Assembly: GCA_017499595.2 (NCBI GenBank) | Contig: CM038998.1 | Location: 2,914,001 to 2,978,000 of the forward strand | Origin: Psilocybe cubensis | Taxonomy: Eukaryota | Length of the DNA: 64,000 nucleotides | Direction of reading: 5' to 3' | Part shown: piece after piece, positions 8,813 to 18,031 of the stretch | How positions within the stretch are numbered: position 1 is the first letter of the stretch | How the letters are laid out: each line of letters opens with the position of its first letter | Position numbers and translations under genes: made by a program | The notes under the pieces: model-generated | Database searches by the model: none | The model's input: only the letters and a program-made list of their open reading frames with translations | Told to the model about the DNA's origin: nothing

Positions 8813-11216
8813 GGTTTATGTATAGTAGAAGTTGAAGTGGTATGTCGTCACAGGGCGAGCGATGAACTTTTAAAAAGTTTCAAGTCAAAGGATTAACAGA
8901 TCGCAAAGAGACCAGTGTTATGCTGCGTTTGGCGTTTCACTCGCTCAACACCTGTACTAGGGTGCGTGAGAAATATTTTCTATTCTTAGAACACGCTATA
9001 TGAAGCTCTGCGCGTGAAGCTATTGAATTACGCATCGAACATCCATCCCAATTGTCCTGACTGTATTTTTCAACGAGAAGGTCAAACCCCACGAATACAT
9101 GTATGTTTTTAATATACAATGTTTTTGAATCCAGTAGGTGATACATCAATTGCACAACGACCTAATAAGTGTTGTGTTATGACTTAGAGACCGTACTTGA
9201 ACAAGACTGACAGTTCCACTGGGGTGGGCTGGAAAAATATATCGCACATAACAAAGGGGAAGTTGAGTTTTGCAGTGTATGTGCTATGATCATGCATGGA
9301 CAAGAATATCGTAGCAGTGATTAAAGTACACCAAGGTTGCATACCTTTTCAATGAATATAAGACCCGATTGACTGAAGGTTTTCAGGAATTGGGAAATCG
9401 GCAGCGTAGCAATTACTAATATTTTCTAATCTATGTAAAGAGTGAGGGTGGTAAACCATTGAAGAACAGCTTCGCGATCAGTTGCAGTTAAATATATGAA
9501 GGCTGTAAACAATTCCTGAACGTCGATGAAGTAGGACGCAACTACTTCTACAGGGAAATAGTCTGTTAGCTTCTCAGAGAAACCAAGTCAAATGACACCC
9601 TCTAACCAATCCTAACAGCCTGCAAATGCTTTTGATTGATCTCGAAGATAATGATGTTTCTGGATCCACAAATGGACTCAAATGGGCAGGATTGATCAAG
9701 GCTTGGTGATGTGAGAGTTAGCCAGTTGGCACACCAAAAAATTGTTGAGAAACTCGAAGAGGACCTATTGCATGGAGGCTGGCGCAGGAGATTGGAACGG
9801 AAACCATAGATCAACTTCCGATAATAACAGGAAAGACCTTCGGACGTGGTGATACATCAACATATTTTCAAATTTTGAGTATACCTGTTTTTTAGGGTTT
9901 ATTTCTGAGACACTCCATCAAAATCTAGGTGTAGAATTCTCCGCATTCAAAAGATTGAAGATCTTACAGTGATGTAACATCTTCAGTACTTTAATTAGTT
10001 AAGCACAAGTTGAGCATATTGTGCGGACACCTACGTACCATAGTAACCTGATTTGGAATTATCTAATCTCCCCACAACTACGTCATCGATTGATTTAAAA
10101 GTGTAAGGCTGAGAGCCTTGTCTCAGGACTCATCGATAACCTCAAAACACGTTGAACGCATATAACATAATATCATGCCCACTGAAACTACAGAAAGGGG
10201 TATAATTCTAAAGCATCCTTCTGTAAGCGTTTCTTTCTTCGTGTATAAATAGAGCGACCTGTTTAAAGTGGTGACGTGCGTCGTTATCCTTCCTCCAGGG
10301 ATCCATTGCCGAAGTACTCTTTTACGGTTCGACCGTTATTTCGTGGAAAGTACCAAATGCCTCTGGCGAGCTGGAAGAACGCCTTTTTGTCTCGTCCAAA
10401 GCTTCTTTAGATGGTTCAAAACCTGTCAGAGGAGGGATACCGATCGTGTTCCCATGCTTTGGTCAACCAACTCATCCAGACCACTTGAAATTAGCGCAAC
10501 ACGGGTTTGCTCGAAACCAAATGTGGACCTTCGACGGAGCTGTTATGGATAATCAAGCCGGAGTCTGCGTTAAATTCGGTAAGACAAACATTGTTGCAGG
10601 GGTCAAGTGTCTCTCAGCTGACAATCTTTCGACTAGTGCTCGATCCAAGAGGCAATGAGGCGCTTTCTGCTATATACACAACTCCTTTCAAATTGGAATA
10701 TGTTGTAACGCTAGCGGCGCATCAGCTTAGCACTGATCTTCATATTAAAAATCCTTCCGCATCCCACACACTCGAATTCCAGGCCTTGTTGCATAGCTAT
10801 ATCCGGGCCCCAGCTGACGAAGTAACTGTCACACCTTTGAAAGGACTGCAATATTATGATAAAACAGAAACGACGGAAGAAGCCCGAACGACTCCCAAAG
10901 TGGAGAGCAGAGCTGAGGTTGATGTGAAGAAATACACAGACGCTGTGTACGAAAATGCACCAATGAAATATACTGTTTCATGGCCTAGTGGAGGTGTCGA
11001 CATCAAGGCTCAAAACTTTAAGGACGTTGTAATCTGGAATCCTCAAGAGGAGGGACGTAAGATCGGTGACATGGAATCTGATGGATGGTAAGTCACGCAT
11101 AGAATCTTCAAATTATCAAATTGTCACTAAAGAATAAAACCAGGAAAAATTATATCTGTGTAGAACCAGGATATGTCAGAGGTTTTGAGAGGCTGGCTCC
11201 TCAGAAGACTTGGATC

Positions 11217-11389
11217 TGTTAGAGTTCCCTCTAACGTAGACACACACACGTGCCTGTAGTCACATATCACACAGTATTTGTAGACACACCCGTAGCTACG
11301 TAGCCTCAGTTCCTTCTTTGTTAGCACACCCAACACGTTCTGGTCCTTCGTCTCTCTCTCCCGCCTCGTCTCCGGGTCTCCTCCTAACA
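11217..11389 (+). repeat. 5' LTR (173 bp)
   Basis: Starts TGTTAG and ends CTAACA (6-bp terminal inverted repeat). Identical to 17470-17642 on manual comparison. Confidence 0.98.
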
Positions 11390-11391
11390 TC

Positions 11392-11402
11392 AAGAAGGAA
11401 CT
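11392..11402 (+). promoter_or_regulatory. Self-priming-type primer binding site (AAGAAGGAACT)
   Basis: Lies 2 nt after the 5' LTR and does not start with TGG, so it is not a canonical tRNA-CCA complement. It is the exact reverse complement of AGTTCCTTCTT at 11308-11318 inside the LTR. Confidence 0.85.
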
Positions 11403-11465
11403 CTAACACATTCAAAACATCCTCTCTCATCGCCTTTTGGCATTTCAATACCACCGTTTCCCAAA

Positions 11466-11936
11466 CTGCCTGGACTACCTCGTTCCCCTTCGATCCTGCC
11501 CATCCAGCAGGATATCGAAGCCTGTACCGACACTTGTGACCGCTACTCTTGGCAATTATTTTTTTTGCAAAGAGACCTCTTGTTGCACGAAGAAACCCTG
11601 CGTATTGCTTCCAACCAGGGTGCATCTTTTGATACCCTTCGGCGACTTACTGCTGCTGTTATAGACTGTCAACGGTCAATCTCACATACCAGAGACCTTC
11701 TCGCTTCCGCTGAAAGACAGTTGCGTTACCTACACGACCAGGCTGATCGCGTTCGCGACCTACAAGATTGTCTGGCTACTCTGTCTCGCCGCATTGATAA
11801 TCTGGCTTTTACCACCTCTCTTAGCCCTGCTATTTTGTCTGGACTTCACGCCCGCCTTGACGATATTCTCAGCTCTCCTCTCTTCTCCAGGTCCTCTACC
11901 CCAGACAGCTTACCTGACCTTGAACCCTCCGATTAG
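11466..11936 (+). CDS. Putative extra retrotransposon ORF (ORF0), coiled-coil-like, non-AUG start (CTG 11466 proposed)
   Basis: The frame is open from 11388 to the TAG at 11934-11936 and contains no ATG. The CTG is in AAA-CTG context. The product has a Leu-rich heptad pattern (TLRRLTAAVIDCQRSISHTRDLLASAERQLRYLHDQADRVRDLQDCLATLSRRIDNL). Confidence 0.55.
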   Translation: MPGLPRSPSILPIQQDIEACTDTCDRYSWQLFFLQRDLLLHEETLRIASNQGASFDTLRRLTAAVIDCQRSISHTRDLLASAERQLRYLHDQADRVRDLQDCLATLSRRIDNLAFTTSLSPAILSGLHARLDDILSSPLFSRSSTPDSLPDLEPSD

Positions 11937-12032
11937 AAGCGCATATATTCACCCTTTTGGCGCATACACCCACCCTCTCTGTTTTTTTCTCTTTCCTTTT
12001 TTTAATTCGCTTCTCGCTTATCGTTTGCACTC

Positions 12033-13217
12033 ATGCCTCCCGGAAAAAGTAAAGGTCGTTCGGTCTCCCCCCGTCGTGGTCGTGACGGTAGTGATGACGA
12101 CACTGTGTCCCGAATTGACCCTGCCATTATCGCTCTCATTAAGGCTAGCCAGGAATCCAATAAAGAAACTATGAAAGATATTCTCGAACTGTCGCGTATA
12201 CAAGCCGAAACTATGTTCAAATCATTCCTCGCGTTACCCCAACTCCAAACCTCTACCCACTCCTCTGCGACTACCTCTACCGCCCGCTCTGGTGATTCAC
12301 GCGCTTATAAGGTGCCCTTTCCAGGTGCCTTCGACGGCTCCTCTGATACTGTCGAAGACTTGCTGGCCTCATGGCGTAACTTTTTTCACTCCGACCCCGA
12401 AGCATACAAAACCACTGATTCCAAAGTACGCACCGCTCTCAGTTCTTTCAAGACCGGCACGCCCGCTGTCTGGCGTAACCAGCTCATTGAAGAGCTAGAG
12501 TCTGGGCAATGCGTCTTAACCAACTGGTCCGACTTTGAGGAGCGCGTGAAAGACTCCTTCCTGTTCCATTTCTCGCAACAACGCGCGGCACGCGAGATCA
12601 TGTGCATCCGTCAGAACTCCACGCCCACTCAAGAGTTCATTATTATCTTCGAGAACCTTGCCTTTCGCTCCAAGTTTAACGACGAAGCGTTGATCCAATG
12701 CTTCAAAATGGCCTTGGATAAGCGTATTATGGAGGAGATTGGACGAACACACCGTGAGATGCCCACATTCGCGGAATGGAAGAGTGCCGCAATCTTGATG
12801 GCTCACAGACTGCGTGAGACTGATGCCACGGTGACTCCGGTCGTCAACACCACCGCCACCTGGCGTCCTCCCCCTTCTTTCACCTCCACCCCTTCCACTG
12901 TTCAAAAGTCTAGCAACCCCCGCCCCGCTGCTCCTGCCCCCAACGCGACTCTACCTGCAAACATCTCCGCTGCTCCGAATCGACGTGCCGCCCTGCCCTG
13001 CTTTAACTGCGGCGTATTTGGCCACTTCATGCGAGTCTGCCCCAAACCCAAAGATCTCGAATTCCAACGCAAATCACGCGCAAAACTGGAACGAGCTCGG
13101 GCCGTCCTCGAGTGCTTTGATGCTTTGCCTGATGACGACAAGCATGAGATTCGATGCGTTGATGTTGACGAAAGTGCCTTGTTTGATGATTCGGATTTTG
13201 TTTCTTGCGTCGAGTGA
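12033..13217 (+). CDS. gag: Retrotransposon Gag (capsid-like region plus CCHC zinc knuckle)
   Basis: 394-aa ORF from the first ATG of the element. Contains PGAFDG...W...WSDFEERVKDSF...IRQ...FIIIFENL (retrotrans_gag pattern) and the CFNCGVFGHFMRVC knuckle. Confidence 0.95.
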   Translation: MPPGKSKGRSVSPRRGRDGSDDDTVSRIDPAIIALIKASQESNKETMKDILELSRIQAETMFKSFLALPQLQTSTHSSATTSTARSGDSRAYKVPFPGAFDGSSDTVEDLLASWRNFFHSDPEAYKTTDSKVRTALSSFKTGTPAVWRNQLIEELESGQCVLTNWSDFEERVKDSFLFHFSQQRAAREIMCIRQNSTPTQEFIIIFENLAFRSKFNDEALIQCFKMALDKRIMEEIGRTHREMPTFAEWKSAAILMAHRLRETDATVTPVVNTTATWRPPPSFTSTPSTVQKSSNPRPAAPAPNATLPANISAAPNRRAALPCFNCGVFGHFMRVCPKPKDLEFQRKSRAKLERARAVLECFDALPDDDKHEIRCVDVDESALFDDSDFVSCVE

Positions 13218-16200
13218 GTAGTACGTCCTCGCCGCTTCTGTACAACAACCCTGTAATTACTCCCAAATTGCATGTTGCATTGTCTCCAAAATCCGTACCT
13301 CTGCCCGTGTTACCTGTTTACGCGACCCCTCAACCTTCATTATCCAATTCTGTATTGACTCCTGACAAGCCCTCTTCTTCAACAACATCACCCAACTCCG
13401 ACTACCCGACACCAACACTCCTGCCCGCGCACCCACAACCTCCAACTATGGCACCCGATTGCATTCCATATTCAGACCTCTTTTTATCCTGTCCTGAGGA
13501 TGATCCACCAGAGCTGCAAGCCCCAGATGCCTCTGATGATTCGGATGAAGATTCGCCAACCAAGCCTGCTCAACAAACCTCCGCCCACGATGATGCATCT
13601 GTCTCTATGACACACGATGCAAGTCCACCACCGGCCCCACGCGACTCTCTACTTTGCAGCCCGCCCGTCGCTGACCACACAGACTGCCCGCCTTCAATCC
13701 CTACACCTGTCCGCACCGTCCTGTGCAACTTGCGCCGATTACGCAGCACGCCTTGGCGAACCGAGAGCCTGCTCAAATCCTGGGCCCCAAAGGAGCGTTG
13801 GGACGACATTGACGATGATCTGATTGCTGCTCTTTGCGATCTCCCCTGGACCGACGCCGCCAAAGTCCTCCAGCAGCTCAAGAAGCCCCGCGACTACATC
13901 TCCCGCATGGGGAGTAAATGCCTTGACATTCCAATGTCGGCTGCACCCCCAGGCTCGACCTCTTTGGTGTCGCTGAAAGCGCTCTTAGACAGCGGTGCCA
14001 CTGGTTGTTACGTGCACTCCGATTTTGTCAAACTCAATGGATGGGTGACTGAGCGGCTGCCCCACCCCGTTAGCGTTTACAATGCAGACGGAACTCGCAA
14101 TGCCAACGGTGCTATCACAGATGTTGTTTACCTTGTCATCCGCATTGAAAACCATGTTGAGCGACTCCGCCTTTCAGTCACCAACACGGGATCATCTTCC
14201 CTCATCCTCGGGCACTCCTGGCTCTGGTTCCATAATCCGCTTGTTGACTGGCGAGAGGCCAAGCTCTGCTTTGCACGCTGCCCCACGTCCTGTGGTGCTG
14301 ACGTGCTGCCGACTTCGCACCCTGATGGCGAAACCGTGAATGTTTGCCGCGAAGGACCCCAGCTCCGTGAAGACGACATCTTTGATGACAGCCCGGGCCC
14401 CTTCACGCCGGTCTCTGCTGCGGAATGGGCTGACGCCTTTGCTGGTGAACTTGCCGATGGTGAATCGATGTGCGCGGTTGACCTCAATGAGTTCACGTCC
14501 GAACAAGTCCATGGCTCATGCGACCACCGCATTTCTCACTTTTTGCGAACTCAACGTGAAGCAGCTTCATATCCCGACCGCTACCTGAAGGAATTTGCAC
14601 CTGTTTTCTCCAAAGAGGAGTTTGACGAGCTCCCACCCCGTCGCCCATGGGATCATGCTATTAACCTGAAACCAGATGCAAAGTCGTTCAAAGCAAAGCC
14701 GTACCGTCTGTCGCCCGCTGAAACCTCGAAGGTCAAGGAATGGATAGAAGAGGAAAAACGCACTGGCCGTATACGGGACTCCATCTCTCCCTATGCCGCC
14801 CCTTTCTTCTTCATCCAGAAAAAGGATGGCTCACTGCGCCCTGTGCAAGACTACCGACGCCTGAACGATATCACGATCAAGAACCGCTATCCATTGCCGC
14901 TCATCTCTGACCTCATGGACAAGCTTAAAGGCGCGAAAGTATTCACCAAACTTGACGTCCGCTGGGGTTTCAATAACATTCGTATCAGGGAAGGCGATGA
15001 GCACAAGGCTGCCTTTATCACGGAGTTTGGACTTTTTGAGCCTCTTGTAATGTTCTTTGGATTGACAAACTCACCAGCTACCTTCCAGAATATGATGAAC
15101 GATCTGTTCAAGGATCTCATTGCTGGCGGCCATGTCGTGATATATATGGATGACATCCTCATCTTCACTGATGATGTCCAGTCCCATCGACATCTTGTCC
15201 GCAATGTCTTGCAGATTCTGGAGGACAACAAGCTTTATCTGCGGCCAGAAAAGTGCTGTTTTGAGCAGGACCGTGTGGAATACTTGGGCGTCATTGTCGG
15301 CCACGGGAAAATGTCCATGGATCCCAAGAAAGTTGACGCTATCACCTCTTGGCCAATCCCGCGCTGTCGTAAGGACGTCCAACAGTTCCTCGGTTTCGTC
15401 AACTTCTACCGTAGGTTTATCAAGAACTTCTCCCGCATTGCCGCTCCCCTGCATGCCCTGGGTGGTTCGGCGCCTTGGGTATGGGACAATTTGTCAACAT
15501 CCGCCTTCAACGAGCTCAAATCCGCCTGCGCTTCACACCCGGTGCTACTTCTTCCCCGCGACGGTGCCCCATTCCGCATAGAGGCAGACAGCTCTGGATA
15601 CGCAACCGGCGCGGTGCTCAGCCAATTTGTTGACAATTCCTGGCAACCGGTCGCGTTTGCTTCAAAAGCCCTCAGTCCCGTTGAGCGCAACTACGAGATA
15701 CATGACCGCGAACTACTGTCAATCATGAGGTCTCTCGATGACTGGCGACGCTACCTCCACGGCTCCGATTCTCCTGTTGAGATCCACACCGATCACAAGA
15801 ACCTTCAGTATTTCATGACCGCTCAGAAATTGAACCGTCGTCAGGCTCGCTGGTCCCTGCAGCTCGCTGAATTCGATTTCGTACTCGTCCACAAGCCAGG
15901 CCCGACCATGATCTGCGCAGACTCGTTGTCCCGCCGCCCCGACTACGATAAAGGTGTTGGCGACAACGAAAACGTCACCTTACTGCGCCCAGAACACATT
16001 CGACGTACTGCTGAATGCTCAATTGGGGATGACCCCGTCCTGGCTGACATTCGAACTCACCAGCACCAAATCACTGAAATGTGGGAAAAGCACAAGAACC
16101 TGCCTGGCTGGTCCCTCCACGACGGCTTGCTTTCATGGCATAACCGAATCTTTGTGCCAAACAAAGGCAACTTGCGTCAACGAATACTCGCCGACTGTCA

Positions 16201-17458
16201 TGATCACCAATCCGTAGGCCACCCTGGCCGGATGAAGACCATGGAACTCGTCCTGCGCGACTATTGGTGGCCGTCACTATCAAAAGACGCGAAGCGTTAC
16301 GTTGATGGATGCCCCACCTGTCAATCAACTAAGCCTCTGAGGATGGCGCCCGCGGGCCTACTGACCCCCAACGAAATCCCTTCCTCCAATTGGGAGATCA
16401 TTTCCTGTGATCTCATCGTGGACTTACCTAAATCTCGCGGCTTCGATTCGATCTTTGTCGTCGTCGATAGACTCTCAAAAATGGTTCGTATCATCCCATG
16501 CAAAAAGTCAATCACTTCTGAGGGTCTCGCGCGCCTCTTCCGCGACCATGTCTGGAAAGACTTCGGACTGCCACGACGCATCATCTCCGACCGTGGTTCA
16601 ATCTTCCTGTCAAACTTTACTCGGGCCCTCAACGACCTGCTAGGCATTTCACAGAACGCGTCCACCGCATTTCGACCTCAAACAGACGGACAAACTGAGC
16701 GCGTCAATCAAGAAATCGAACAATACCTACGGATCTTTGTGAATAACAGGCAAAATGATTGGGTGGAATGGCTTGCATGCGCCGAATTTGCTATCAACAA
16801 TAAGATTCACTCGTCCACTGGCTTCTCGCCCTTCTTCCTAAACTATGGCTCCAACCCCCGCCGAACCCTGCAACCCGCACGCCTCTCGGACGACCGTGTC
16901 CCCAAAGCTCTTGAATTCGCCTCTCAAATGGATTCCCTCGCGAAGGAATCCGCTTCAGCGCTAAACCTCGCCGCTGATGCAATGAAGCGATCCTATGACA
17001 CCTCTCACCGCGCTCCACCCGTCTTCAATGTTGGCGACATGGTGATGCTCAGCGCCTCCGACATCAAGTCCTCACGTCCGTCTAAAAAGCTCGATGTTAA
17101 GCGTCACGGACCTTTTCCTGTGACGAAACGCGTTGGCATCCAGTCTTACACCCTCGACCTACCGGCCTCGTGGTCGATCCACCCTACTTTCCATGTCTCT
17201 AAACTCTCCCGTTTCATACCAGCAGAATTCGATTCCCAAACTTCACCCGCGACACCAACACCTCCCCCCGCGTTACCACCCCCAGACATTGCAAGTGTGC
17301 TCGGCCACAGGGCCCTGCGCAGTGGAACACAGTTCCTCGTGCTGCTCGATGGCTGCACAGAGGAAGACGCTTCGTGGTCAAGCCACTCATCCTTCCCTAA
17401 CTCTGAAGTACTAAACAATTACATACGCCTCCACAACATCCCGGACGCCCACCTTTAA
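13193..17458 (+). CDS. pol: Retrotransposon Pol polyprotein (protease, RT, RNase H, integrase, degenerate chromodomain), -1 frame relative to gag
   Basis: ALLDSGATG (PR); KKDGSLRPVQDYRRLN, MFFGLTNSPATFQ, YMDDILIF (RT); EADSSGYATGAVL, NYEIHDRELL, TDHKNL (RH); H-x4-GHPG...CPTCQ, ISDRGS, PQTDGQTERVNQEIE, GPF (IN). No internal stops. Confidence 0.98.
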   Translation, partial: GFCFLRRVSSTSSPLLYNNPVITPKLHVALSPKSVPLPVLPVYATPQPSLSNSVLTPDKPSSSTTSPNSDYPTPTLLPAHPQPPTMAPDCIPYSDLFLSCPEDDPPELQAPDASDDSDEDSPTKPAQQTSAHDDASVSMTHDASPPPAPRDSLLCSPPVADHTDCPPSIPTPVRTVLCNLRRLRSTPWRTESLLKSWAPKERWDDIDDDLIAALCDLPWTDAAKVLQQLKKPRDYISRMGSKCLDIPMSAAPPGSTSLVSLKALLDSGATGCYVHSDFVKLNGWVTERLPHPVSVYNADGTRNANGAITDVVYLVIRIENHVERLRLSVTNTGSSSLILGHSWLWFHNPLVDWREAKLCFARCPTSCGADVLPTSHPDGETVNVCREGPQLREDDIFDDSPGPFTPVSAAEWADAFAGELADGESMCAVDLNEFTSEQVHGSCDHRISHFLRTQREAASYPDRYLKEFAPVFSKEEFDELPPRRPWDHAINLKPDAKSFKAKPYRLSPAETSKVKEWIEEEKRTGRIRDSISPYAAPFFFIQKKDGSLRPVQDYRRLNDITIKNRYPLPLISDLMDKLKGAKVFTKLDVRWGFNNIRIREGDEHKAAFITEFGLFEPLVMFFGLTNSPATFQNMMNDLFKDLIAGGHVVIYMDDILIFTDDVQSHRHLVRNVLQILEDNKLYLRPEKCCFEQDRVEYLGVIVGHGKMSMDPKKVDAITSWPIPRCRKDVQQFLGFVNFYRRFIKNFSRIAAPLHALGGSAPWVWDNLSTSAFNELKSACASHPVLLLPRDGAPFRIEADSSGYATGAVLSQFVDNSWQPVAFASKALSPVERNYEIHDRELLSIMRSLDDWRRYLHGSDSPVEIHTDHKNLQYFMTAQKLNRRQARWSLQLAEFDFVLVHKPGPTMICADSLSRRPDYDKGVGDNENVTLLRPEHIRRTAECSIGDDPVLADIRTHQHQITEMWEKHKNLPGWSLHDGLLSWHNRIFVPNKGNLRQRILADCHDHQSVGHPGRMKTMELVLRDYWWPSLSKDAKRYVDGCPTCQSTKPLRMAPAGLLTPNEIPSSNWEIISCDLIVDLPKSRGFDSIFVVVDRLSKMVRIIPCKKSITSEGLARLFRDHVWKDFGLPRRIISDRGSIFLSNFTRALNDLLGISQNASTAFRPQTDGQTERVNQEIEQYLRIFVNNRQNDWVEWLACAEFAINNKIHSSTGFSPFFLNYGSNPRRTLQPARLSDDRVPKALEFASQMDSLAKESASALNLAADAMKRSYDTSHRAPPVFNVGDMVMLSASDIKSSRPSKKLDVKRHGPFPVTKRVGIQSYTLDLPASWSIHPTFHVSKLSRFIPAEFDSQTSPATPTPPPALPPPDIASVLGHRALRSGTQFLVLLDGCTEEDASWSSHSSFPNSEVLNNYIRLHNIPDAHL

Positions 17459-17466
17459 GAGGGGGG
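17457..17466 (+). promoter_or_regulatory. Polypurine tract
   Basis: AAGAGGGGGG, 3 nt before the 3' LTR and overlapping the pol stop codon. Confidence 0.9.
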
Positions 17467-17469
17467 TGA

Positions 17470-17642
17470 TGTTAGAGTTCCCTCTAACGTAGACACACAC
17501 ACGTGCCTGTAGTCACATATCACACAGTATTTGTAGACACACCCGTAGCTACGTAGCCTCAGTTCCTTCTTTGTTAGCACACCCAACACGTTCTGGTCCT
17601 TCGTCTCTCTCTCCCGCCTCGTCTCCGGGTCTCCTCCTAACA
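17470..17642 (+). repeat. 3' LTR (173 bp)
   Basis: Identical to the 5' LTR and followed by the TSD GGATC. Confidence 0.98.
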
Positions 17643-18031
17643 GGATCGGACAACAGGTTCTTACGGTGATTCAAAAGTGACAACTTCATTTGAGGACTGG
17701 AGTAGGTACCAGCTTTAAGACAGTATCAATCATGTCAAATTGTTGTAGTAAACGCCGATCTCGTTATTCACAAAATGTAATCAAAATTGGCTCTTTGTTC
17801 TAAGGGCAATAAATAATATTGTGGAGATGTATGCTTTACCCTGCTTTCCCAGAGTCCAAGCGCCTTCCCCTAATGGTTTACGGAGTCAGTCGGGCCGGTC
17901 AAATGGACAAGACAACGTTTGAAAATGCAAGTTACTTTTGTTCTTGAGCCACGCAAGGTTCACAAGCGTTTTGCAGCTACTTCGATAAAGACCCAAGAGC
18001 TAGTATTTTCCTGGTATAGATTTGTTTCAAG

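Follow-up and report, generated by a model that had tools for sequence, protein, structure and literature searches.

A candidate reading frame without an AUG in the ATG-free leader of a Ty3/gypsy retrotransposon from Psilocybe cubensis

The ATG-free leader of the element

The stretch of DNA analyzed here comprises 64,000 nucleotides (nt) of the basidiomycete Psilocybe cubensis (GenBank assembly GCA_017499595.2, contig CM038998.1, positions 2,914,001 to 2,978,000 of the forward strand); we refer to it as the window and number it from its first letter. It contains a complete Ty3/gypsy retrotransposon with long terminal repeats (LTRs), inserted near the end of a gene for glucose-6-phosphate 1-epimerase. 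Between its primer-binding site (PBS) and gag, the element has an additional open reading frame (ORF), termed here ORF0, which lacks an ATG and lies within a leader that is itself free of ATG in three frames. This element and its near-identical copies are called family 1, and a diverged relative from the same species is called family 2. The features of the element are as follows.

11217-17642, forward strand: whole element, 6426 bp, a complete Ty3/gypsy LTR retrotransposon
11212-11216 and 17643-17647: left and right copies of the 5-bp target-site duplication GGATC, read directly
11173-12032, forward strand: ATG-free run of 860 nt
11217-11389, forward strand: 5' LTR, 173 nt
11308-11318, forward strand: putative self-primer and start of R, AGTTCCTTCTT, inside the LTR, complementary to the PBS in 11 of 11 nt
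11392-11402, forward strand: PBS of the self-priming (Tf1) type, AAGAAGGAACT, beginning 2 nt past the LTR
11388-11936, forward strand: ORF0, 182 open codons and TAG, conserved with family 2 from about 11421 to 11924
11442 (ATT) and 11448 (ATA), forward strand: in-frame near-cognate alternatives upstream of the CTG
11466-11468, forward strand: candidate non-AUG start CTG in the ORF0 frame, with A at -3, the first CTG past the PBS in any frame
11488-11520, forward strand: predicted RNA hairpin, 19 nt past the CTG (region z = -2.9)
11937-12032, forward strand: 96-nt spacer rich in pyrimidines and predicted to be weakly structured, containing the second in-frame stop (TAA 12003-12005)
12033-13217, forward strand: gag, 394 amino acids (aa), with Retrotrans_gag and a CCHC knuckle; the element has no ATG before the one that starts gag
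13205-17458, forward strand: pol, in the -1 frame, with protease, reverse transcriptase (RT), RNase H, integrase, a Tf2-type SH3 domain and a weak chromodomain-like C-terminus
17457-17469, forward strand: polypurine tract, AAGAGGGGGGTGA, abutting the 3' LTR
17470-17642, forward strand: 3' LTR, 173 nt

An earlier note on this DNA had reported that ATG is absent from the first LTR base to gag, and indeed it occurs at 0 of the 816 sense-strand positions 11217-12032. The complete ATG-free run of 860 nt is the longest in the window, with runners-up of 337 nt on the forward and 317 nt on the reverse strand. The base composition of 11217-12032 predicts 8.3 ATGs and a first-order model 6.0, while 5000 dinucleotide shuffles of the stretch contained 5.98 on average and were devoid of ATG with P(0) = 0.0012; against such a composition-matched null the absence is not expected. 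Among the 64 trinucleotides ATG is the only one missing from the stretch, whereas those of the same composition are all present (AGT 5, GAT 8, GTA 8, TAG 10 and TGA 8 times) and the antisense ATG, read as CAT, occurs 12 times; thus the absence is specific to strand and to the order of bases, and not compositional. For comparison, ATG is found 17.8 times per kb in gag, 19.3 in pol, and 18.7 in the whole window. Within ORF0 there is no Met in 181 codons, where the codon usage of gag and pol predicts 3.3 (P = 0.036). Out-of-frame ATGs are also missing: permutation of synonymous codons gives 2.3 on average (P(0) = 0.019), and resampling of the ORF0 codons by gag/pol usage gives 1.9 (P(0) = 0.11). 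The family-2 protein exhibits the same property, as its gene model P0009 has no Met in residues 2-208, with 3.8 expected (P = 0.022).

In elements of the Tf1 paradigm, the 5' end of the RNA serves as primer. No TGG, the mark of a tRNA-type PBS, follows the 5' LTR of our element, and the operational rule for self-priming calls for complementarity over 10 nt or more that begins within 0-5 nt of the LTR end (PMC6317226). With 11 of 11 nt complementary and an offset of 2 nt, the element has the sequence layout of this Tf1/sushi type. The predicted fold of 11310-11410 pairs the self-primer with the PBS (z = -3.3), and the most structured window of the leader is that of 150 nt at 11308-11457 (z = -5.4). 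A related element in sequencing run X8 can be aligned across the R-U5 region precisely to 11402, after which it diverges (contig record 17: 11307-11402, then 12735). Judged by the self-primer complementarity alone, the genomic RNA would start near 11308, which would leave a transcribed leader of about 725 nt before gag; the interval from PBS to gag is 643 nt. Thus, of the "816-nt leader" of the earlier note, the freedom from ATG stands, while its initial 173 nt are the 5' LTR and the transcribed part is likelier to span about 725 nt. Three other details of this region can be mentioned. There is a second inverted repeat, in which the first bases of the LTR (11217-11232) match the PBS region (11393-11408) in 15 of 16 nt (94%). 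The motif AGTTCC(C/T)TCT is found where the LTR begins and again at the putative start of the RNA. In R-U5, a CTG with G at -3 and G at +4 opens a 15-codon frame (11340-11387) closed by TAA before the PBS, which could be a short non-AUG upstream ORF preceding ORF0.

Conservation and predicted fold of ORF0

In frame 0 stops are located at 11385, 11934 and 12003, which leaves the single open frame 11388-11936 as it had been described. ORF0 shares its frame with gag (12033) and is cut off from it by TAG 11934 and TAA 12003, so that a readthrough fusion can be dismissed; translation from the CTG at 11466, with A at -3, yields 156 codons. The protein is acidic (pI 5.6) and rich in Leu, Ser, Asp and Arg. 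With Leu at 29 of 181 positions and a hydropathy that repeats every 3.5 residues, it bears out the Leu-rich, heptad-like character ascribed to it earlier.

An exhaustive phmmer search of 1.84 billion representatives returned, besides copies of ORF0 itself, the P. cubensis protein P0007 (JR316_0012456) with an E-value of 1.2e-33; P0009 is an alternative gene model of the same family-2 protein. A BLASTP alignment of ORF0 with family 2 comprises 81 identities in 174 positions (47%; 61% positives) and one gap of four residues. The shared C-terminus reads ...STPDSLP(D/E)LE followed by three residues in both proteins, the end points agree within two residues, and the motif S-R-x-S-T-P-D-S-L-P-x-L-E is invariant between the two families. 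The frame and its end are thus kept in a relative, in a single comparison within one species. The N-terminus of the family-2 protein reads through the homologous LTR end and PBS (GSPPNIKKEL corresponds to 11374-11403 in frame 1), and P0009 can be matched to R-U5 and PBS solely if the frame changes twice, from 2 to 1 and then to 0, over some 110 nt. The adjoining non-coding part has therefore taken up frameshifting indels, whereas about 520 nt of ORF0 have taken none. In a neutral simulation with substitutions only, continued to 47% aa identity (about 69% nt identity), 1.9% of 3000 runs stayed open (P = 0.019), with 3.8 stops on average.

The pattern of conservation points in the same direction. 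The hydropathy of the helix predicted at residues 80-141 peaks at a period of 3.5, a value reached by 0 of 5000 permutations, and the identity between the two families has a periodicity of 3.4-3.5 in both long helices (P = 0.006 and 0.013). Of 53 hydrophobic residues 31 are conserved, compared with 28 of the 73 others. Heptad-phased conservation of this kind is a coiled-coil signature. The RNA of 11608-11982, which covers the 3' two-thirds of ORF0, exhibits no excess of structure (z from -0.8 to +1.1), and RNA folding therefore does not account for the conservation there. With the homologue at 47% identity, the retained frame and end, and the phased conservation, ORF0 behaves as a selected protein in this single comparison, in keeping with the accessory protein proposed by the earlier note; that it encodes such a protein is, in our estimate, quite probable.

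The AlphaFold2 model calculated from the single sequence of ORF0 contains helices at residues 36-75, 80-141 and 146-161, with a mean predicted local distance difference test (pLDDT) score of 74.5 and 74 residues at or above 90. The overlapping translation of frame 1 (P0012), used as a control, reaches a mean of 55.1 with 17 such residues; hence the fold check suggested earlier gave a confident helical hairpin, unlike the alternative frame. The product is predicted to be a protein of roughly 156-165 aa with a Pro-rich N-terminus, an antiparallel coiled-coil hairpin and a third helix. The fold did not lead to a function. A Foldseek search of the model against the PDB yielded no match with E <= 0.001, the top entries being ESCRT-III-like and other helical hairpins with E >= 0.14. 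A wide search with VIA-align gave a top Z of 11.4 (HlyD), and 50 entries, hairpins or coiled coils, were tied at about 10.0 or higher; helical models reach a Z of about 13 through their common arrangement alone, and these generic matches below that value thus carry no functional information. The ESM Atlas offered no usable match. Prediction of a complex between ORF0 (residues 30-181) and Gag, carried out with no controls, scored 0.08 against a mark of 0.34. In Pfam the only match was DUF6468 with E = 0.048, under its cut-off, and Rfam had no match at E <= 1 over 11100-12200. The overlapping frame 1 is open for 169 codons (11665-12171), spanning the end of ORF0 and the start of gag; its translation is hydrophobic, resembles a membrane helix and is probably accidental.

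Protein searches covering the near and the longer length classes, with both the single sequence and a profile, retrieved matches from P. cubensis only. The 738-aa repeat protein P0008 (E = 1e-05), in which five stretches matched a 38-residue piece of ORF0, was set aside as a repeat or low-complexity match and not a homologue. A profile scan of metagenome contigs gave 46 pattern matches and no relative. A 20-nt LTR/PBS pattern was found in the metagenome contigs at 3 loci, which lack gag, pol or ORF0 similarity and are chance matches. Among viral contigs, searches with the ORF0 profile and with gag had no match, and 119 stretches found there with a 17-nt pattern were discarded, a 17-mer being too short. 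Three IMG/VR contigs of 5.5-5.7 kb (L123, L124 and L125) are decayed Ty3/gypsy elements with several stops in pol and 43-47% pol identity; they contain no ORF0 homologue at E <= 0.1, and their similarity to gag is barely detectable, which makes them uninformative here. Terminal overlaps of 31-113 nt in these contigs suggest circular or LTR-collapsed assemblies.

Class, copies and recent mobility of the element

The two LTRs are 100% identical and have the ends TGTTAG...CTAACA (TG...CA). Pfam detects Retrotrans_gag (1.1e-05) and zf-CCHC (1.8e-04) in gag and, in order along pol, RVT_1 (3.5e-35), RT_RNaseH (1.4e-33), Integrase_H2C2 (1.1e-20) and rve (1.7e-07; with 31.9 bits slightly below the cut-off of 32.6). 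The closest solved structure to pol is the Ty3 Gag-Pol 7q5b (E = 2e-122). With its LTR and target-site ends, gag, and the order of protease, RT, RNase H and integrase, the element is a member of Ty3/gypsy (Metaviridae). The narrower label of chromovirus, given to it by the earlier note, is not secured: the last 80 residues of pol match Pfam Chromo with 13.2 bits (E = 0.086), short of the cut-off of 25.1, and full-length pol has no Chromo match at E <= 0.1. The rest of the 64-kb window contains nothing that resembles the element.

A few observations concern gag and pol. The two frames overlap by just 13 nt (in the region 13205-13219) in a -1 arrangement, and no canonical slippery heptamer is visible there. 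A donor-like hexamer, GTGAGT, overlaps the gag stop at 13214-13219; an intron starting from it was rejected, as no frame-compatible AG acceptor is found within about 40-400 nt. The first 250 or so residues of the pol frame are rich in Pro, Ser and Thr. The gag ATG at 12033 stands in a weak-looking context (C at -3, C at +4); the next in-frame ATG, at 12171 (codon 47), is preceded by A at -3, and between the two there is an ATG out of frame, at 12094.

The insertion lies in the last exon of the glucose-6-phosphate 1-epimerase gene (10175-11216 and 17643-17680), 10 codons before the stop. Joining the flanks restores the host ORF; the protein of the empty site ends in ...QKTWIGQQVLTVIQK, which the insertion alters to ...QKTWIC. 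We aligned sequencing runs X6, X7, X8 and X13 at 80% likeness and found the empty site in contigs of X6 and X13, hence the insertion is polymorphic. Run X6 carries the element elsewhere, with 1 difference in the 1776 nt of 11360-13135. In X8, a 218-nt contig (record 18) covers 11530-11747 within ORF0 without a difference; X7 has gag and pol fragments only, X13 the empty site only, and no diverged copy across ORF0 was found in these four runs. X6 is labelled as a different organism from a different study, which could reflect close relatives, labelling or recent spread. Identical LTRs, near-identical copies and empty sites together indicate that the family moved recently, and the ATG-less state thus belongs to a working element and not to a wreck.

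Further copies can be recognized from public gene models of P. cubensis, of which P0004, P0005, P0006, P0010 and P0011 splice host exons onto the 3' part of ORF0 (11574-11933 or 11661-11933). The model P0011, "glucose-6-phosphate 1-epimerase", maps to 10175-11216 and then jumps to 11661-11933 in ORF0. Identical ORF0 C-termini close chimeric models at no fewer than two further loci (at least three in all), namely P0004/P0006 with a small EDRK-rich-like first exon and P0010, "glycogen debranching enzyme"; P0005 is perhaps another. One chimeric model is misnamed "BLOC-1-related complex subunit 5". These models look like annotation artefacts at insertion sites.

Proposed expression of ORF0, alternatives and precedents

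Non-AUG starts and leaky scanning through AUG-free leaders are known in retroviruses and pararetroviruses. As neither the 5' LTR nor the leader contains an AUG, an ORF0 translated from the element's own promoter must have a non-AUG start, unless splicing creates an AUG. The leader RNA of about 725 nt, beginning near 11308, would then carry ORF0 as a third gene between PBS and gag. A minority of 40S subunits would initiate ORF0 at a near-cognate codon, likeliest the CUG at 11466 or else the AUU at 11442 or the AUA at 11448, and the remaining subunits would continue along the leader, free of AUG and poor in G, until they meet the gag AUG at 12033. Leu26, encoded by the CTG, is invariant in the alignment of the two families, and we infer from the sequence that this codon may be the start used. 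The last 200 nt of the leader are pyrimidine-rich and weakly structured. A defined spacing between start codon and hairpin favours weak starts (PMC5902531), and that of the hairpin at 11488-11520 is near, not equal to, the spacing favoured in this source; that the predicted hairpin stalls scanning ribosomes is speculative. As to function, with low confidence, the product might be an adaptor that oligomerises and is produced at a low level compared with Gag; it would act on the RNA or the particle assembly of the element, or would recruit a host factor via the C-terminal motif. On balance, we lean slightly towards an accessory protein made from a non-AUG start, with leaky scanning to gag. The fuller proposition is that this active fungal member of Metaviridae relies on nothing but non-AUG initiation and leaky scanning, in an AUG-purged leader, to make a third protein, a coiled coil specific to its lineage; in our judgement it is evenly poised.

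Several results weigh against such expression. A 182-codon frame is modestly unusual by its length alone in so C/T-rich a stretch (the longest frame in shuffles has 107 codons on average, and P(>=182) = 0.02). The codon usage of ORF0 is weakly coding-like: the log-likelihood margin of frame 0 is 15.0 nats, compared with a mean of 47.6 and a minimum of 11.0 for windows of gag and pol, it is attained in some frame by 5.8% of shuffles, and part of it stems from the mere lack of stops. The conservation amounts to one independent protein-level comparison within P. cubensis, and the homologues are gene models, hence only open copies are visible (ascertainment). Conservation extends upstream of the CTG, over P11-K25 from Pro11 (11421), which is unexplained if the CTG is the start, although it may reflect the adjacent priming structure; 11388-11441 contain no in-frame near-cognate codon. 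The frame of family 2 extends upstream through PBS and LTR to an ATG, and this family might use that AUG if its transcripts start further upstream. However, the sole Met of P0009 precedes VPSLF, which corresponds to our self-primer, and the self-priming model would place it in U3, not in the RNA. Among the sequencing runs no RNA run was listed as containing the stretch, and a single run, presumed to be RNA, shows the empty site only.

The leader could instead be an untranslated 5' region (5' UTR), kept free of AUG for cap-dependent scanning, in which ORF0 is accidental and the likeness to family 2 reflects conserved cis-acting RNA for packaging, dimerisation or priming. The P-values of 0.02 for the open frame and 0.058 for the codon-usage margin leave room for this, the 5' part of the leader (11308-11682) exceeds shuffles in structure (z from -2.1 to -5.4), protein searches found neither an ORF0 homologue beyond P. 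cubensis nor a Pfam family, and protein databases can show only open copies. We nevertheless consider it rather unlikely. A frame of about 520 nt kept at 47% aa identity with a single gap of a multiple of three, next to an LTR/PBS region that shifts twice in about 110 nt, is an outcome that neutral substitution seldom gives; constraint on RNA does not predict the 3.4-3.5-residue phasing or the hydrophobic enrichment, and the part of the leader at 11608-11982 has no excess structure. The helical fold is confident where that of the alternative-frame control is not, and the 643-nt spacer between PBS and gag would be without reason. It is more doubtful still that ORF0 is a real protein reached by another route, be it an AUG made by splicing, chimeric or read-through transcripts from host promoters, or bypass of the stops so that it becomes the N-terminal part of Gag. 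ORF0 does share its frame with gag, gene predictors repeatedly join host exons to acceptor-like sites near 11573 and 11661, family 2 has an in-frame ATG in its LTR, and a coiled coil is found at the N-terminus of Gag in the Ty3/gypsy element Cer1 (PMC10309623). Yet TAG 11934 and TAA 12003 intervene and the family-2 protein ends at the same point; by eye the leader offers no good donor, and AG is absent from about 11938 up to the gag ATG; the chimeric models vary by locus, as would prediction artefacts at insertion sites; and host promoters would be unreliable for an element at each new site.

Family 1 may also have lost, very recently, the start of a gene that was once AUG-initiated, perhaps as it still is in family 2, so that ORF0 would be a dead passenger not yet decayed. 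In accord with this, TAA 11385 closes the family-1 frame just 36 nt ahead of the conserved part, there is a 2-nt difference in length from family 2 right after the PBS, and the family-1 copies seen are near-identical and hence have had no time to decay. A single loss of a start is insufficient, however, to explain 860 nt free of ATG in three frames together with the avoidance at synonymous sites (P = 0.019). The family-2 ATG would be located upstream of the inferred RNA start under the self-priming model, and family 2 is itself without Met across 207 codons; we regard a dead passenger as very improbable.

The closest precedent is rice tungro bacilliform virus (RTBV), whose ORF I starts at AUU with about 10% of ribosomes and whose approximately 900 nt without an internal AUG permit scanning onward (PMC5902531). 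Like our element, RTBV (Caulimoviridae) is reverse-transcribing and Ty3/gypsy-related, and it combines an AUG-less upstream ORF with an AUG-free stretch (here about 725-860 nt, the first AUG being that of gag), so that the leader would follow an RTBV-like polycistronic logic of leaky scanning. No AUG lies between the inferred RNA 5' end and the gag AUG (0 ATG, P = 0.0012), and selection on the upstream ORF is seen at the protein level only, in one comparison. There are also differences: ORF I of RTBV is reached by shunting over a structured leader filled with short upstream ORFs, there are two upstream ORFs, RTBV is an episomal plant virus, and its translation has been demonstrated whereas that of ORF0 is suggested by sequence; Pfam and phmmer searches revealed no similarity of ORF0 to RTBV proteins. 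To our knowledge, plant pararetroviruses are so far the only reverse-transcribing elements for which non-AUG initiation combined with leaky scanning has been demonstrated. Another comparison is glyco-gag (gPr80gag) of murine leukaemia virus (MLV), which is initiated in frame with gag from an upstream CUG, located in the leader of the unspliced genomic RNA (PMC3042739). Glyco-gag continues without a break into Gag and extends its N-terminus, while ORF0 has no segment resembling a signal peptide and no homology to it. An extended Gag of this type was rejected because of TAG 11934 and TAA 12003 and the stop of the family-2 protein at the same place; with two stops before gag, ORF0 would be a separate polypeptide.

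In Tf1, gag and pol form one ORF behind a short leader. Our element resembles the Tf1/sushi group in the lack of a tRNA-type PBS, the 11-nt complementarity to the LTR found 2 nt past it, and the Tf2-type SH3 domain on integrase, and differs from Tf1 in its separate gag and pol frames and in the 643-nt interval from PBS to gag with an extra ORF. The accessory protein CERV of the Caenorhabditis elegans Ty3/gypsy element Cer1 is made from a spliced mRNA. It has three structured domains, including G and M, unlike ORF0, which has no detectable homology to it (PMC10309623). The coiled coil of Cer1 is located inside the Gag N-terminus, where our element has the separate ORF0; Cer1 Gag shows that a coiled-coil module is present at this position in Ty3/gypsy elements (PMC10309623).

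The statement of the earlier note that canonical chromoviruses encode only gag and pol was too absolute, as extra ORFs are common in other lineages of LTR retrotransposons, and those of plant Ty3/gypsy lineages include some located upstream of gag (PMC6317226). In the plant Ogre, Tat and Athila elements, extra ORFs of the eORF-5'F type lie in sense orientation between the 5' LTR and gag, are lineage-specific, mostly domainless and of unknown function; they were set at 250 codons or more and come from non-chromovirus lineages with large non-coding regions (PMC6317226). Some of them carry plant mobile domain, Transposase_28 or Athila ORF-1 domains. ORF0 is likewise an extra sense ORF upstream of gag, while it has 182 codons, belongs to a fungal element and has no detectable homology to the plant ORFs. 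It was not assigned to eORF-5'F, being shorter than 250 codons and having the sub-threshold DUF6468 as its sole Pfam match. The available part of the plant account makes no mention of AUG-less starts or AUG-free leaders (PMC6317226). The literature searched contains no report of a conserved, AUG-less ORF in the leader of a fungal LTR retrotransposon; supplements and most subscription journals were outside this scope, and a prior description is possible.

ORF0 already affects public annotation: its 3' part has been appended to host genes, and a misleading name was given to one such fusion. Translation of ORF0 would imply that accessory genes of LTR retrotransposons can be concealed in regions annotated as 5' UTR and expressed with no AUG, the amount of their product relative to Gag being set by the strength of the start codon. 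The leaky-scanning strategy of pararetroviruses would in that case extend to Metaviridae. Annotation based on ATG would miss such AUG-less accessory genes, which may be widespread in retrotransposon leaders. A young and apparently active element in a cultivable mushroom would then be a tractable system for the study of non-AUG initiation and of retrotransposon accessory functions.

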